Shown here: positions 33,556 through 39,816 of the stretch, one piece after another
How the letters are laid out: every line of letters begins with the position of its first letter
How positions within the stretch are numbered: the stretch's first letter is position 1
Sequence record: NC_011040.1
Reading direction: 5' to 3' (one strand)
DNA length: 39,816 nucleotides
Origin: Escherichia phage BA14
The notes under the pieces: generated by a model
What the model saw: the letters and a program-made list of their open reading frames with translations, nothing else
Told to the model about the DNA's origin: nothing
The model's database searches: none
Program-made: the position numbers and the translations under genes

Positions 33556-33578
33556 CAATACGACTCACTATTGGGAAG
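33556..33578 (+). promoter_or_regulatory. Phage RNAP promoter cAATACGACTCACTATTGGGAAG (phi17-like)
   Basis: T7-family promoter 2 nt after the gp16 stop; leader forms a GGGAAG...CTTCCC stem-loop. Confidence 0.8.
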
Positions 33579-33626: not shown

Positions 33627-35594
33627 ATGGCTAATAAAATTTCCACTGTACGTACTTACCCGCTGAACGGTGCCGTGAACTTCACGATTACCTTTGAGTA
33701 TTTAGCACGTAAGTTCGTCCAAGTGACACTCATCGGGAAAGACCGTAAAGAGTTGGTTCTCAATCAGGACTATCGCTTTACCACTAAGACCCAAATCACA
33801 ACCTCCCGTACATGGACTGCCGCTGATGGTTATCAGATGATTGAGATTCGTCGATTCACATCTGCAACCGACCGTCTGGTTGACTTTGCTGATGGCTCAA
33901 TCCTTCGTGCGTATGACCTTAACATCTCACAGATTCAGACGCTGCACGTAGCTGAAGAGGCACGAGACCTAACTGCGGATACCATTGGTGTCAACAATGA
34001 TGGTCACTTGGATGCCCGTGGTCGTAAGATTGTGAACCTAGCGTTCGCCACCAGTGACTATGATGCTGTCCCACTGAAGCAAGTAAAAGAGCGCGAGTCG
34101 TCTGCTTGGAACGCTGTTAACAAGGCCAATGAACATGCTAACCGCTCTAACACTGAGGCTAACCGCTCGCGAGATGAAGCTGACCGTGCAAAACGTGAAG
34201 CTGACCGCTCAACCCAACAGGCAGGTGTCTCTACGGCACAGGCAGTTGAGTCCAAGAAGCAAGCTGACCGTTCCAACTCTGAGGCTAACCGAGCTAAAGG
34301 TTATGCTGATAGTATGACCGCAAGTGTCGCTGAGGCCAAGAAGCAAGCTGACCGTTCCAACTCTGAGGCCAATCGTGCCCGTGATGAGGCCAATCGTGCT
34401 GCCGGAGAAGTGACTAAGGCTGCTGCTGAGGTTGCCAAAGCTGCTGCACACGTTGCTACCGCTAAAGGTCATGCTGACCGCGCCAACACTGAGGCTAACC
34501 GTTCCAAAGGTGAGGCTGACCGTGCTAAGGCCGAGGCCGATAAGTTGGGCAACATGAATGGCCTAGCTGAGACAGTTGAGAAGGTTGATGCTCCAGATGT
34601 CTACTTCAAGCGTAATGTGATTGCTGGCCACCGTCTGGAGACTAAGGGTGGTTCCCATCTACACCCTAACGAGTTGAAATTGGTGAACACTAAGTCTCCT
34701 GACCAGCACTTTATCGTACAAGCATGGGGCACTGGTGACCCAAACAATAGGGCACAGGTGTTTGAACTTAGGGATAACTTAGGTCCATATGCGTTTTACA
34801 TTCAGCGAATGAAGAAGACTGACCAAACGTGGCAAATGAGTGTGAATGGCACTGTTAGCTGTGTATCCGTTGAGGCTGGTAAGGGGTTCATCTCTAAGGA
34901 CAGTACAGGCTCTATTCAAATGAAAACGTGGGGTGGCAGTTGGAACCAGTGGACATCAAATGCTGTTCCAGACATTCAGCATGACATCGAAGCCCAACAT
35001 GATGCGGCTTATCTGCTGGAGAGGGCAACCATTTGGGGCAAAGAGCACCTGTATGCTAAGTGCTTATACAACAATGGCGGTGGCGCTAACTTCTTTATCA
35101 GACATTATCTCCGTGGGACTTACTTCGACTTCAGGAGTGATGGTACTCTTAGTGGCTCGACTGGTTGGTATATCCCGCCAGATGGCAACCTGTACATCAA
35201 GAAATATGGACTGTATATTGATACGTGGGTTAACAATCGCTTGGGCGAACACGCCTACAATAAGGGCGAAGTCAACAACTTGGTCAATGGTCGTCTTACC
35301 GCTGGTCAAGGTGATGGTCGATATGTCCGCAAGAACGCTGGGTGGGCTGAGGTCTGGAAAGGCTCTGCTGGTGGTGGTGTCTCCGTAGGTCTCTCACAGG
35401 ATGTCCGATGGAGAACTATCTGGATTCAAACTCAAGGACGCTGGAACCCGGTTCAGATTGGCGATAACGGGCCATACTACATCTCTTCTATGGGTGGGTG
35501 GCTACAGTTTACAATCTCCAACAACGGGAGAACTTTCCGAAATGATGCTGACCGTAGTTCTGTACCTACGAGAATCTTAGTTCAAAACCAATAA
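33627..35594 (+). CDS. 17: Tail fiber protein (gp17)
   Basis: 655 aa; N-terminal ~150 aa and C-terminal ~90 aa match T7 gp17; central coiled-coil region is repeat-expanded. Confidence 0.95.
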   Translation: MANKISTVRTYPLNGAVNFTITFEYLARKFVQVTLIGKDRKELVLNQDYRFTTKTQITTSRTWTAADGYQMIEIRRFTSATDRLVDFADGSILRAYDLNISQIQTLHVAEEARDLTADTIGVNNDGHLDARGRKIVNLAFATSDYDAVPLKQVKERESSAWNAVNKANEHANRSNTEANRSRDEADRAKREADRSTQQAGVSTAQAVESKKQADRSNSEANRAKGYADSMTASVAEAKKQADRSNSEANRARDEANRAAGEVTKAAAEVAKAAAHVATAKGHADRANTEANRSKGEADRAKAEADKLGNMNGLAETVEKVDAPDVYFKRNVIAGHRLETKGGSHLHPNELKLVNTKSPDQHFIVQAWGTGDPNNRAQVFELRDNLGPYAFYIQRMKKTDQTWQMSVNGTVSCVSVEAGKGFISKDSTGSIQMKTWGGSWNQWTSNAVPDIQHDIEAQHDAAYLLERATIWGKEHLYAKCLYNNGGGANFFIRHYLRGTYFDFRSDGTLSGSTGWYIPPDGNLYIKKYGLYIDTWVNNRLGEHAYNKGEVNNLVNGRLTAGQGDGRYVRKNAGWAEVWKGSAGGGVSVGLSQDVRWRTIWIQTQGRWNPVQIGDNGPYYISSMGGWLQFTISNNGRTFRNDADRSSVPTRILVQNQ

Positions 35595-35642
35595 GGACAA
35601 CACACAATGACCACGGATGGTCTCAACAATAAGGAGGACACA

Positions 35643-35849
35643 ATGTTGTCTTTAGATTTTAACAACGAGGTAGTGAAGGCTGCTCCGATTGTAGGGACAG
35701 GTGTAGCCGATGGTGCTGCCCGTCTATTCTTCGGACTGTCCCTTAACGAGTGGTTCTATGTAGCCGCAATTGCCTACACAGTGGCTCAAATTGGTGCCAA
35801 GGTAGTCGATGTGATTATCAAATGGAAGAAGGAGGGTAAAGATGTCTAA
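35643..35849 (+). CDS. 17.5: Holin (gp17.5)
   Basis: 68 aa from ATG 35643 (RBS AAGGAGG); MLSLDFNNE..AAPIVGTGVAD...LNEWFYVAAIAYTV near-identical to T7 gp17.5. Confidence 0.9.
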   Translation: MLSLDFNNEVVKAAPIVGTGVADGAARLFFGLSLNEWFYVAAIAYTVAQIGAKVVDVIIKWKKEGKDV

Positions 35850-36111: not shown

Positions 36112-36122
36112 TGGTAATACTC

Positions 36123-36146
36123 AAGGCCACTACATCTAGTGGTCTT
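36123..36146 (+). promoter_or_regulatory. RNase III-type hairpin (R18.5 position)
   Basis: AAGGCCACTA-catc-TAGTGGTCTT, 10-bp stem, between gene 18 and gene 18.5. Confidence 0.5.
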
Positions 36147-36209
36147 TATGAATTATCAACACAACTCACGGTGACGCTACGTGAAATCTGAGAAATGGGG
36201 AGGGTAGTT

Positions 36210-36653
36210 ATGCTCAAGAATTTAAAGAGCTACGCCATCGCTGTGGCCTTTGCCTTGGGGATGACCCTTGCGTACAACCACGGCTATGACAAGGCTAACA
36301 CTAAATGGGAACAGGAGGTGCACAATGAGTACGTTAAGAAAGTTGAGGCGACTGCGGATAAACAGGCTGCTCTCAATGAAGTCTCACGACAATACCAAGA
36401 AGACCTTGCGGCGCTGGAAGGCAGCACTGATAGGGTCATTAATGATTTGCGTAACGATGGTAAGCGGCTGCGTGTCAAACTATCAGCCACCTCACGAGAA
36501 CTCCAAGCTAACGGTGGATGCCTCGTTGATGGTCGAGCCGAACTTGACGAAGAGTTTAGTAAGCGTCTTATCGGAGTAACTCAAAGAGGGGATGCGTGGA
36601 TTAAAGCGCTCCAAAATACAATAACTGAAATGCAATCTAAGAAGGAGAAATAA
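36210..36653 (+). CDS. 18.5: Inner-membrane spanin Rz (gp18.5)
   Basis: 147 aa from ATG 36210 (RBS GGGGAGGG); N-terminal TM helix and KWEQEVHNEYVKKVEA, YQEDLAALEGSTDR match T7 gp18.5. Confidence 0.9.
   Translation: MLKNLKSYAIAVAFALGMTLAYNHGYDKANTKWEQEVHNEYVKKVEATADKQAALNEVSRQYQEDLAALEGSTDRVINDLRNDGKRLRVKLSATSRELQANGGCLVDGRAELDEEFSKRLIGVTQRGDAWIKALQNTITEMQSKKEK
36325..36579 (+). CDS. 18.7: Outer-membrane lipoprotein spanin Rz1 (gp18.7), embedded in +1 frame of 18.5
   Basis: 84 aa from ATG 36325 (RBS AGGAGGTG); signal/lipobox LMICVTMVSGC and C-terminal DASLMVEPNLT as in T7 gp18.7. Confidence 0.85.
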   Translation: MSTLRKLRRLRINRLLSMKSHDNTKKTLRRWKAALIGSLMICVTMVSGCVSNYQPPHENSKLTVDASLMVEPNLTKSLVSVLSE

Positions 36654-36654
36654 T

Positions 36655-37212
36655 ATGGCTACTACAAACTCAAGAACCCGCACACTCTGGACCATCAATG
36701 GTCGCTCACCAGACAGTCGTGATGTGTATGACCACAACAATATTGGCCTTCGTGTTGGGCGTATCGACATCCCAGCTTCGGAGATGGTTAAGGTTGAGGG
36801 CTACTCTAAGGTTGAATACATTATCCAACTGAGTGATGGCACCACTGAGCAACATGCTACGTTCGAGACCCTTATGTCCACTTGGGGTGGCTCCGTCGAG
36901 TCTAAACCGGGTAGCGGGTTCATGACGGTGTTCCTGAATGAGCAAAGCACTGAGCGACTCGGTATGGTTCGAATCGACGTATACAAAGAGTGGACTGGTG
37001 CTGACCCTGAACCTGAAGGTGGTAGGGCTTCCTTAGTTAGTGCAACGCTTTCTGCGTCTGATAGTGCATTTGGTACACAGTTCGTGGATAGCGAAGGGAA
37101 GAGTGCTTCCGTTATGTTCCAACCTAGTGACATCGACGGGGCTGTATCTAAGACCGACACTATCAAGGCTCTTGAGAAGCGCATCGCTGACTTAGAGAAA
37201 GCTGCCAAGTAA
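36655..37212 (+). CDS. Hypothetical late protein, unplaced between spanins and large terminase
   Basis: 185-aa ORF with strong RBS GAAGGAGA; starts 2 nt after the Rz stop; no TM segment; C-terminal amphipathic stretch TIKALEKRIADLEKAAK. Confidence 0.7.
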   Translation: MATTNSRTRTLWTINGRSPDSRDVYDHNNIGLRVGRIDIPASEMVKVEGYSKVEYIIQLSDGTTEQHATFETLMSTWGGSVESKPGSGFMTVFLNEQSTERLGMVRIDVYKEWTGADPEPEGGRASLVSATLSASDSAFGTQFVDSEGKSASVMFQPSDIDGAVSKTDTIKALEKRIADLEKAAK

Positions 37213-37227
37213 CAATAGGAGGCCACA

Positions 37228-38985
37228 ATGTCTACTCAAGCAAACAAGAATGCGCTCATCGTGGCGCAACTTAAGGGTGACTTCGTGGCCTTCCTGTTCG
37301 TCTTATGGAAGGCTCTGAACTTACCTAAACCAACCAAGTGTCAGATTGATATGGCACGTACACTCGCTAACGGCGACCACAAGAAGTTTATCCTTCAGGC
37401 GTTCCGTGGTATCGGCAAGTCCTTTATCACCTGTGCGTTCGTTGTGTGGGTCTTATGGCGTGACCCTCAACTTAAGGTGCTCATTGTGTCTGCCTCTAAG
37501 GAACGTGCGGACGCTAACTCCATCTTCATTAAGAACATCATTGACCTGCTGCCATTCCTCGCTGAGTTGAAACCTCGACCGGGACAGCGTGACTCTGTGA
37601 TTAGCTTCGACGTTGGCTTGGCGAAACCCGACCACTCACCTTCTGTGAAGTCTGTGGGTATCACTGGTCAGTTGACTGGTAGTCGTGCTGACATCATTAT
37701 CGCAGATGACGTTGAGGTTCCCGGCAACAGTTCTACAAGCTCTGCTCGTGAGAAGCTGTGGACACTGGTAACTGAGTTTGCTGCGTTACTTAAGCCGTTA
37801 CCTACCTCTCGCGTTATCTACCTTGGGACACCTCAAACCGAGATGACTCTCTATAAGGAACTTGAGGATAACAAAGGGTACAGCACAGTAATCTGGCCAG
37901 CACAGTATCCACGCAATGACGCTGAGGCTCTCTACTATGGCGACCGACTGGCTCCTATGCTTAAGCAAGAGTATGATGAAGGCTACGAGATTCTTCGTGG
38001 ACAACCTACTGACCCTATTCGATTCGATATGGATGACCTCCGTGAACGTGAACTCGAATATGGCAAAGCTGGCTACACTCTTCAGTTCATGCTCAACCCT
38101 AACCTGTCCGATGCTGAGAAGTACCCGCTGAGGCTCCGTGATGCCATTGTGTGCGCAGTGGACACTGAACGTGCCCCATTGTCCTACCAGTGGTTGCCGA
38201 ACCGTCAGAACCGCAATGAGGAACTTCCTAACGTGGGTCTGAAGGGTGACGACATTCACAGCTTCCATGTGTGTTCCTCTAAGACCGCTGAGTACCAGCA
38301 AAAGATTCTCGTCATTGACCCCTCTGGTCGTGGTAAGGATGAAACGGGTTACGCAGTCCTCTACACCCTGAATGGCTACATCTACTTGATGGAAGTCGGT
38401 GGGTTCCGTGGTGGCTACGATGACCCTACCCTAGAGAAGCTCGCTAAGAAGGCCAAGCAGTGGAAGGTACAGACGGTCGTACACGAGAGTAACTTCGGTG
38501 ATGGTATGTTCGGTAAGGTATTCTCTCCGGTTCTCCTGAAGCACCACAAGTGTGCCTTAGAAGAGATTCGTGCTCGTGGCATGAAGGAGATGCGTATCTG
38601 CGACACTATCGAACCGTTGATGGGCGCACACCGCCTTATCATCCGTGACGAAGTAATCCGTGAGGACTACCAGACCGCTCGTGACCTTGATGGGAAACAT
38701 GATGTTCGCTATAGTGCGTTCTATCAGATGACCCGTATGACTCGTGAGAAGGGCGCTGTGGCACACGATGACCGACTTGATGCTATCGCATTGGGTATCG
38801 AGTTCCTTCGTGAAGGGATGCAGGTGGACTCTAAGGTGGGCGAGGAAGCTATGACACTTGAGTTCCTTGAACACCACATGGAGAAACCTATCATCGGTGG
38901 TGACATGGCTCGTGAGTTAGTGTCTGGAGGTGTGGACATCTACTATGAGGACGATGGCGATGGAGAGTGCTTCATTGAGTGGTAA
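37228..38985 (+). CDS. 19: Terminase large subunit (gp19)
   Basis: 585 aa, RBS TAGGAGG; Walker A-like FRGIGKS and extensive collinearity with T7 gp19. Confidence 0.97.
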
Positions 38986-39072
38986 TAGATAAGTATGCGG
39001 GAAAGGTGCATAGGTAAGCACTTAGTACCGCTACGTTATCATCAAGTAACTTACTGATATACATGAAGAAAT

Positions 39073-39622: not shown

Positions 39623-39816
39623 TCTCATAGTTCATACAAAGTGTTTACCCCCTATGGCCTCCTTCAGTTCCCCAAAGAGTGCCACCCCTTATGGTAACTT
39701 ATGGTTTACTTAATGTCAATCATTATGTGAGACATTGGGTGAATCATTGGGATGACCACTAGATATAGTGTGTGGGAGACCTTATGACCACTATATGTAG
39801 TCCTCTCTGTGTCCCT
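39623..39816. repeat. Right direct terminal repeat (exact copy of 1-194)
   Basis: Identical to bases 1-194. Confidence 0.95.

Follow-up and report, generated by a model that had tools for sequence, protein, structure and literature searches.

A dispensable, exchangeable gene between Rz and the large terminase

The window, i.e., the whole stretch of DNA analysed here, is the 39,816-nucleotide (nt) sequence record NC_011040.1 of Escherichia phage BA14, and the subject of this study is an open reading frame (ORF) at 36655..37212 on its plus strand, which lies between the spanin genes and the gene of the large terminase (TerL). The ORF starts with ATG, ends with TAA and comprises 185 codons; we refer to its product of 185 amino acids (aa) as X and to the homologues as the X family. 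A Shine-Dalgarno (SD) sequence, GAAGGAGA, can be read directly at 36641..36648 (+), 6 nt 5' of the start codon, which confirms the 185-aa ORF and the SD reported in an earlier model-made note on these letters (hereafter the sequence-only reading), and AAGGAGA precedes every family member examined. Upstream, the i-spanin gene Rz (gene 18.5; 36210..36653, +), whose orthologues are annotated as Rz or endopeptidase, ends with a TAA at 36651-36653, so that Rz and X are one base apart and the earlier figure of 2 nt was essentially right. The o-spanin gene Rz1 (gene 18.7; 36325..36579, +) is nested within Rz in the +1 frame, appears in the ORF list with the motif ...MVSGC... and has the length of the 255-nt o-spanin annotated in phage ETEP21B. 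Downstream, the 15 nt following the X stop codon (37213-37227) lead to the terminase ATG at 37228. The sequence-only reading had placed these 15 nt before the terminase ribosome-binding site (RBS), but the RBS itself (TAGGAGG; 37216..37222, +) begins 3-4 nt past the X stop codon.

Since positions 1-194 are exactly repeated at 39623-39816 (direct terminal repeat of 194 bp), the window covers a linear genome of the T7 type from end to end. Its identity is 96% with Salmonella phage BSP161 and 90-94% with further Berlinvirus phages (Studiervirinae), which makes it a complete Berlinvirus genome and a relative of T7. A search with the promoter of the phage RNA polymerase (RNAP) annotated in FE44 (TAATACGACTCACTATTGGGAGA type) returned 12 plus-strand matches of 23 bp with at most five mismatches (positions 353, 5645, 6270, 6796, 9069, 10828, 18158, 20748, 21740, 26217, 33556 and 39073), three of them exact (26217, 33556 and 39073). 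The exact match before gene 17 (33556..33578, +), equivalent to phi17, is the nearest one upstream of X, and the same search found none between 33556 and 39073, such that X would be co-transcribed with genes 17, 17.5, 18, 18.5/18.7 and 19. It is hence a sound inference from promoter placement that X is a late gene. Scans for sigma-70 promoters and terminators gave background level only, and the lack of any Rfam match in the X region argues against a hidden RNA element.

X is a genuine coding gene under purifying selection. In searches with hidden Markov models (HMMs), phrog_20446 matches residues 1-185 (E 3.6e-128) and phrog_27102 residues 4-124 (E 3.6e-47), both of these PHROG families being of unknown function. 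The ratio of nonsynonymous to synonymous substitution rates (dN/dS) against five close orthologues is 0.13-0.51 for the entire protein and 0-0.42 for residues 1-120; beyond residue 120 it amounts to 0.57-1.03 against the four closest orthologues, which differ by few substitutions, and to 0.16 against the more distant one of ETEP21B.

A tblastn search of 50,697 phage records found an X homologue in 56, all of them Berlinvirus-type and comprising phages of Yersinia, Escherichia, Salmonella, Erwinia and Enterobacter; the orthologue of the laboratory phage PhiV-1 is 93.5% identical to X. Neither T7 nor T3 is among the 56, in agreement with the sequence-only reading, which had recognised no T7 or T3 relative and had expected gene 19 to follow 18.5/18.7 directly in T7-type genomes: the end of gene 18.5 of T7 (37349) and the start of its gene 19 (37371) have no gene between them. 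vB_ShiP-A7, a phage for which a virion mass spectrometry (MS) study exists, is likewise absent from these matches. A large terminase of the T7 type is encoded in 1,441 phage records, in 85 of which TerL is at least 90% identical to that of BA14, and about two thirds of the Berlinvirus-like records carry X, which makes the gene unusual for T7-type phages and routine for the genus. It can therefore no longer be called unplaced, as the same family occupies the same junction in the 56 phage records and in metagenomic T7-like contigs. While the synteny comparison proposed earlier thus found X routinely at this junction in most Berlinvirus isolates, it brought up no documented function, and the orthologues are annotated only as "hypothetical", "unknown" or "unknown product".

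Beyond these isolates, the X family is rare in nature as sampled. A profile search with the N-terminal domain (N-domain) against 1.84 billion representative proteins yielded about 17 genuine clusters, all of which carry the domain N-terminally in proteins of 188-269 aa, a word-indexed search of 5.8 billion proteins yielded 18 clusters, and a scan of IMG/VR returned known isolates only. Three long repeat proteins from an exhaustive HMMER search with the N-domain (P0028, P0030 and P0031) proved on reading to be summed low-complexity noise and were discarded. Two details of the ETEP21B record may be added. It starts the X orthologue 23 codons late (L020 2570-3058), the full ORF with the conserved SD running from 2501, and its remark "two transmembrane domains (Phobius)" is unsupported by the hydropathy profile of the BA14 orthologue.

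A discrete cassette in a fixed exchange slot

The position of X is strictly kept. In all 20 genomes or contigs that show both neighbours (BA14, ten isolates and nine metagenomic contigs; contig L009, with 730 bp, is too short to include them), the family member directly follows Rz and ends 15-19 nt before TerL. This slot is retained in contig L005, in which Rz is only 44% identical to that of BA14, and also in contig L015, where it occurs beside a 780-aa gp17-type fibre and a second receptor-binding protein (RBP) of 584 aa with a beta-helix.

The borders of the inserted segment become visible in Kluyvera phage Kvp1, in which X is precisely absent from flanks that are 98-100% identical to those of BA14. 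The empty junction of Kvp1 reads GAAATGCAA|CAATAGGAGGCCACAATG, and in BA14 these two sequences are 576 nt apart. The resulting insertion/deletion cassette (36637..37212, +) consists of an extension of the Rz tail, which contains the SD of X, and of X itself; its right border is the terminase RBS, which in Kvp1 directly adjoins the Rz stop codon. The last five codons of Rz (SKKEK) are present only in genomes that carry X, with Rz ending in ...EMQSKKEK* in BA14 compared to ...EMQQ* in Kvp1. A second type of loss is found in Escherichia phage Carena (L010 1013-1240), where an in-frame internal deletion of 330 bp at a GCTTC microhomology takes residues 43-152 and leaves a remnant of 75 aa composed of the N-terminus and the helix. 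Since both Kvp1 and Carena were isolated as plaque formers, X is dispensable, and these two phages, together with the promoter-free interval upstream of the gene, bear out its earlier description as a late accessory gene.

Where X is present, its alleles have been replaced as units. Compared with phages PYPS50, YpP_T3 and pEa_SNUABM_57, the DNA identity of the flanks is 83-100% and drops to 17-75% only within about 36650-37200. At the protein level, X is 47-52% identical to its counterparts in these three phages with a saturated synonymous substitution rate (dS at least 1.9), compared with 86-93% for Rz and 92-95% for TerL at a dS of 0.08-0.72. Likewise, contig L006 and BA14 share 37% identity in X, 69% in Rz and 91.5% in TerL. 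A repeat search found no meaningful terminal or flanking repeats at the cassette, and profile searches with Pfam, PHROG and NCBIfam found no nuclease or recombinase domain in X. The exchange of alleles presumably proceeds by homologous recombination through the conserved flanks. X is thus a discrete cassette in a fixed exchange slot between Rz and TerL in which whole alleles are replaced. The exact conserved borders and the tolerated loss of the gene further imply that this slot may serve as a site for payloads.

Other variable sites exist in the late region. A second slot just after TerL, which corresponds to 38986-39072 in BA14 and is without HNH there, carries an HNH homing endonuclease in Altay-2017 (L002 5880-6338), ETEP21B (L020 4864-5307) and contig L029 (11551-11997). 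In Kvp1, genes 18 and 18.5 are separated by an additional gene, 18.2 (L004 16442-16777), with identity dropping to 11% in the BA14 36120 bin and the BA14 counterpart of the site at about 36112-36194, and gene 17 is followed by a gene for tail-fibre assembly, 17.2 (L004 15354-15878). Both sites are further insertion/deletion sites of the late region.

Architecture of the X family and its modular kinship with tail fibres

An alignment of 18 members divides the X family into an N-terminal domain, a hinge and an exchangeable C-terminal part. The N-terminal domain, by which the family is defined, comprises residues 1-120 (36655..37014, +) and is predicted by AlphaFold2 to form a beta-sandwich of seven strands and one helix (pLDDT about 80-92). 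The family alignment reveals 25 invariant residues in this domain, many of them charged or aromatic and including R17, D20, S21, R22, D26, R36, D38, Y50, K52, E54, Y55, E82, K111 and E112, most of which fall into loops 14-31, 41-51 and 77-88 if the predicted secondary structure is followed. A nearly invariant acidic-proline hinge, DPEPE (residues 117-121; 37003..37017, +), divides the conserved from the exchangeable part, and just past it, at residues 123-126, the pLDDT falls below 50. The hinge is followed by a variable module rich in Ser, Thr and Gly (residues 122-166; 37018..37152, +) with three short predicted strands at 129-135, 138-144 and 150-155 (low pLDDT of 54-72); by direct count, these three amino acids make up 38% of residues 121-165, which agrees with the composition noted earlier. 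X ends in a putative oligomerisation element, the amphipathic sequence TIKALEKRIADLEKAAK (residues 167-185; 37153..37209, +), which AlphaFold2 models as a helix over residues 167-183 with I170, L173, I177 and L180 in a-d spacing over two heptads. The C-terminal heptad stretch of the sequence-only reading hence reappears in the model as a short amphipathic helix, and the oligomerisation read from it may be correct. Within the family, the exchangeable part measures 65-180 residues and ends either in a LEKRIxALEKPA helix or in an IKxALGI...PPA motif, LEKRIxALE(K)PA being common to most alleles. The protein (20.1 kDa) is acidic with an isoelectric point of 4.9; it has no signal peptide and, as stated before, no transmembrane (TM) segment, the top Kyte-Doolittle mean over 19 residues being 0.75.

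For the N-domain, no homologue outside the X family was detected in the Pfam, NCBIfam, PADLOC, PDB sequence-profile and protein searches. Pfam, NCBIfam and PADLOC gave no match for X or its relatives in any part, and the PDB sequence-profile search returned designed coiled coils only (E about 0.4-1). Weak fold matches of the family to RBP-like or carbohydrate-binding-module (CBM)-like structures suggest that the N-domain is a candidate lectin-like sandwich. A Foldseek search of BFVD pointed to a distant candidate in Klebsiella phage Sibilus (E 8e-5), the gene of which was not located. The match to PHROG 1857 ("head-tail connector"; E 0.006), which derives from gp15 of mycobacteriophage Violet, covers essentially just the LEKRIADLE helix and was rejected as evidence of homology. 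As the 120-residue head has no detectable relative in the sequence and structure databases, a solved structure would add a new domain family.

The exchangeable part of relatives, in turn, contains modules homologous to the shaft of gp17 and to distal domains of tail fibres. Residues 114-219 of P0011, a family member encoded on contig L029, match positions 140-245 of the tail-fibre family PHROG 4242 (E 5.5e-9), and its sequence "ADPDAVDLHTVKQ" aligns with "SDYDAVPLKQVKE", residues 143-155 of BA14 gp17, a motif which in T7 we take to lie at the junction of the tail-attachment domain and the shaft. The gp17 gene of the same contig (6640-7947) is unusually short with 435 aa, and shaft sequence may have moved between the gp17 gene and the P0011 gene in L029. 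The middle domain of alleles of 250-300 aa matches a further tail-fibre family, PHROG 6578 (E 1e-6 to 2e-4), and by tblastn (E 5e-8 to 5e-3) also the tail fibres of rV5-like and T5-like phages and of a jumbo phage of Xanthomonas. This kinship does not extend to the head: the N-domain profile is unrelated to BA14 gp17 (hhalign probability 0.2%), and Pfam finds no PF03906 tail-attachment domain in X. While the gene itself was already present in databases, the fixed exchange slot between Rz and TerL, the head domain without known relatives and the modular kinship with tail fibres are new.

Possible functions of X

A head, a hinge and a stalk built of fibre parts, combined with late expression, dispensability and exchange as a cassette, point to a host-interaction protein constructed like a small fibre. 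From our point of view, X could hence be an accessory protein on the outside of the virion, oligomeric and not essential, namely an auxiliary adhesin or a decoration protein, a reading that we favour tentatively and consider quite possible, if somewhat short of probable. On this basis, we infer that X oligomerises, is present in the virion and has a binding activity. X would then sit on the virion exterior as a short rod or knob, and its N-terminal beta-sandwich would be the working head, with either a conserved surface of the virion as its docking site or a conserved glycan of the cell surface as its ligand. Through the DPEPE hinge, this head would be linked to an exchangeable stalk of tail-fibre-type modules, and the terminal short coiled coil would hold the subunits together. 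Two orientations can be imagined, namely that (i) the N-domain faces the particle as an anchor, as in ordinary fibres; or (ii) the C-terminal helix is the anchor and the N-domain is displayed as a lectin. The effect of X would concern adsorption, host range or the behaviour of the particle in nature and not plaque formation in the laboratory. The virion add-on that the sequence-only reading had suggested thereby gains indirect support from the fibre modules of the relatives, and as a function it stays a proposal drawn from sequence comparison.

Several points weigh against this reading. The BA14 allele itself is without fibre modules, its helix has only two heptads with a dimer-type core, and N-domains diverge by 35-50% where the virion proteins of the phages compared share more than 90% identity. 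Moreover, our literature search, outside of which the Yep-phi proteomics and HRP29 structure papers fell, found no virion MS or cryo-electron microscopy data for phages that carry X.

A comparison with known systems shows where X would fit and where it would not. The T7-type fibre gp17 (Phage_T7_tail, PHROG 4242) has 655 aa compared to the 185 aa of X, which is dispensable, lacks the Phage_T7_tail domain and has a novel beta-sandwich as its conserved part. The gp17 shaft is a trimeric coiled coil; X possesses only the two-heptad helix, and a gp17-shaft-like segment is present in its relative P0011.

Closer in scale are alpha-claw (gp44) and alpha-paw (gp43) of PhiM1, which are capsid decoration proteins of Autographiviridae podophages (PMC11440229). 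Like X, they are small (6-20 kDa) and accessory, with genes near those for TerL and lysis and not near the capsid gene; in our assignment of the published gene numbers to the GenBank entry, alpha-claw (about 6 kDa) and the alpha-paw protein (about 17 kDa) corresponded to ORFs of 62 and 179 aa right after TerL, which sets a precedent for decoration genes beside the terminase. They oligomerise via short helices, as we propose from the model for X, and alpha-paw has an extra fibrous part that has been proposed to aid adhesion (PMC11440229). However, no sequence similarity to the X family was detected by hhalign (E 0.29 and 0.93), and the PhiM1 proteins consist of helices only and begin with a helix-turn-helix, whereas X is predicted to be mainly beta with a C-terminal helix. 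X has neither the helix-turn-helix for dimerisation of the alpha-claw type nor the capsid-clip motif, and a location in the virion, which has been shown for the PhiM1 proteins, is proposed for X.

Other dispensable or optional proteins offer looser parallels. KP32-type second RBPs are large beta-helix depolymerases that are docked on a branching domain of the first RBP. They resemble X in being an optional extra in a T7-type genome that is encoded apart from gene 17 and exchanged, and a role in host interaction is what we propose for X; X differs in that it is small and without an enzyme domain, and as it co-occurs with a two-RBP system in contig L015, it is not a second RBP of the KP32 type. 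Hoc of T4 and pb10 of T5 are dispensable, late proteins of the head surface with Ig-like domains, which sit as monomers at the hexamer centres. X shares dispensability and late expression with them and would, like them, display a small beta-rich domain of a kind thought to bind surfaces weakly, but no fold or sequence match to either was found.

As an alternative, X could be soluble, made late and active on the host envelope or its receptors and not carried on the virion, for example as an RBP-like lectin that masks receptors on debris after lysis, so that progeny are not wasted, or in superinfection exclusion. Translational coupling to the spanin gene within the lysis/packaging block would suit such a role, as would the fold matches to RBPs and CBMs, the fibre-tip modules in the relatives, the lack of a recognisable virion-attachment domain and the fast exchange of a dispensable gene. 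Without a signal peptide or TM segment, however, the protein could reach the envelope only after lysis, the gp17-shaft-like coiled coil of P0011 fits a particle-bound rod better, and we know of no precedent in T7-type phages, so that we regard this explanation as rather unlikely. One could go further and speculate that the Rz/TerL slot is reserved for the exchange of a new RBP-like class of non-virion proteins with a lectin-like head of a kind not seen before, which upon release by lysis would mask receptors on cell debris or on neighbouring cells and thereby protect the progeny from dead-end adsorption, a soluble, late masking strategy in T7-type phages; we consider this extended version highly doubtful.

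We also judge it unlikely that X is an anti-defence or host-manipulating factor which is made late, or is packaged and reaches the next cell with the phage, and diversifies in an arms race with host immunity, although the swapping of deeply diverged accessory alleles between near-identical genomes is what such a factor would show, and although many charged residues are invariant in the acidic N-domain. This explanation leaves the tail-fibre modules of the relatives unaccounted for, and to our knowledge the known anti-defence genes of the T7 group are early. Pfam, NCBIfam and PADLOC gave no match, PADLOC covering defence systems and no library of anti-defence profiles having been searched. The idea is further favoured by the gene directly downstream of X, since TerL is known to trigger the Avs and Upx sensors (bioRxiv 10.64898/2026.04.30.721860). 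However, the orthologue in PhiV-1 does not keep EcAvs2, SeAvs3 and Upx, which sense the terminase, from restricting this phage, and in the genome-wide screens of PhiV-1 genes TerL alone scored, X not being among the toxic genes omitted from the library (bioRxiv 10.64898/2026.04.30.721860). On these data we reject the more specific idea of a terminase shield against Avs sensors, which had been derived from the adjacency to TerL, and the late anti-defence factor of the sequence-only reading is left without support.

An assembly helper, i.e., a tail-fibre chaperone or a packaging or lysis accessory outside the finished particle, appears still less probable. X is a late gene with genes for the fibre, lysis and packaging around it, its family has modules in common with fibre proteins, and some fibre chaperones resemble their clients. 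Four genes lie between X and gene 17, however, and a separate ORF is found right after gene 17 in Kvp1, where it is annotated as fibre-assembly, and in pEa_SNUABM_57. In addition, the fibres of PYPS50 and BSP161 are 91% identical (PMC8762354), and yet PYPS50 carries an allele of 256 aa and BSP161 one of 185 aa. The allele type is hence independent of the gp17 fibre type, which argues against a fibre chaperone as well as against a gp17-specific adaptor, and the plaques formed by Kvp1 and Carena without X speak against a helper in general.

Finally, a selfish or neutral passenger cassette, kept by recombination through the Rz and TerL flanks and of no benefit to the phage, would explain the sharp presence/absence borders and the replacement of alleles as units, and other selfish genes (the HNH endonucleases) do sit just after TerL in relatives, but we hold it to be very improbable given the lack of a nuclease or recombinase domain and of flanking repeats, a GC content (0.50) equal to that of the genome (0.49), the strong purifying selection on the N-domain and the retention of the slot next to a strongly diverged Rz.

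T7-type phages are better understood than any others and are a principal chassis when host range is to be engineered, gp17 being commonly regarded as their sole host-range determinant. If X is indeed an external accessory protein of the virion, it would represent an overlooked second determinant of adsorption or particle behaviour that is related to fibres and freely exchangeable. This would be relevant to the phages used in the diagnostics of Yersinia pestis (Yep-phi, Berlin, Yepe2) as well as to laboratory phages such as PhiV-1, and the Carena deletion provides a natural, ready-made mutant of X.

Two further observations concern neighbouring late genes. Gene 17 of BA14 (33627-35594) encodes the 655-aa tail fibre, the shaft of which (about residues 170-300) carries a long run of near-repeats of the ADRSNSEANRA(K/R) type. 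Repeats near the point of divergence have been described for the fibres of related phages (PMC8762354), which suggests a recombination hotspot. Furthermore, the holin ORF as called mechanically (35607-35849; 80 aa) exceeds the 207-nt gene annotated in the relatives by 12 codons, and its true start is probably the ATG at 35643.
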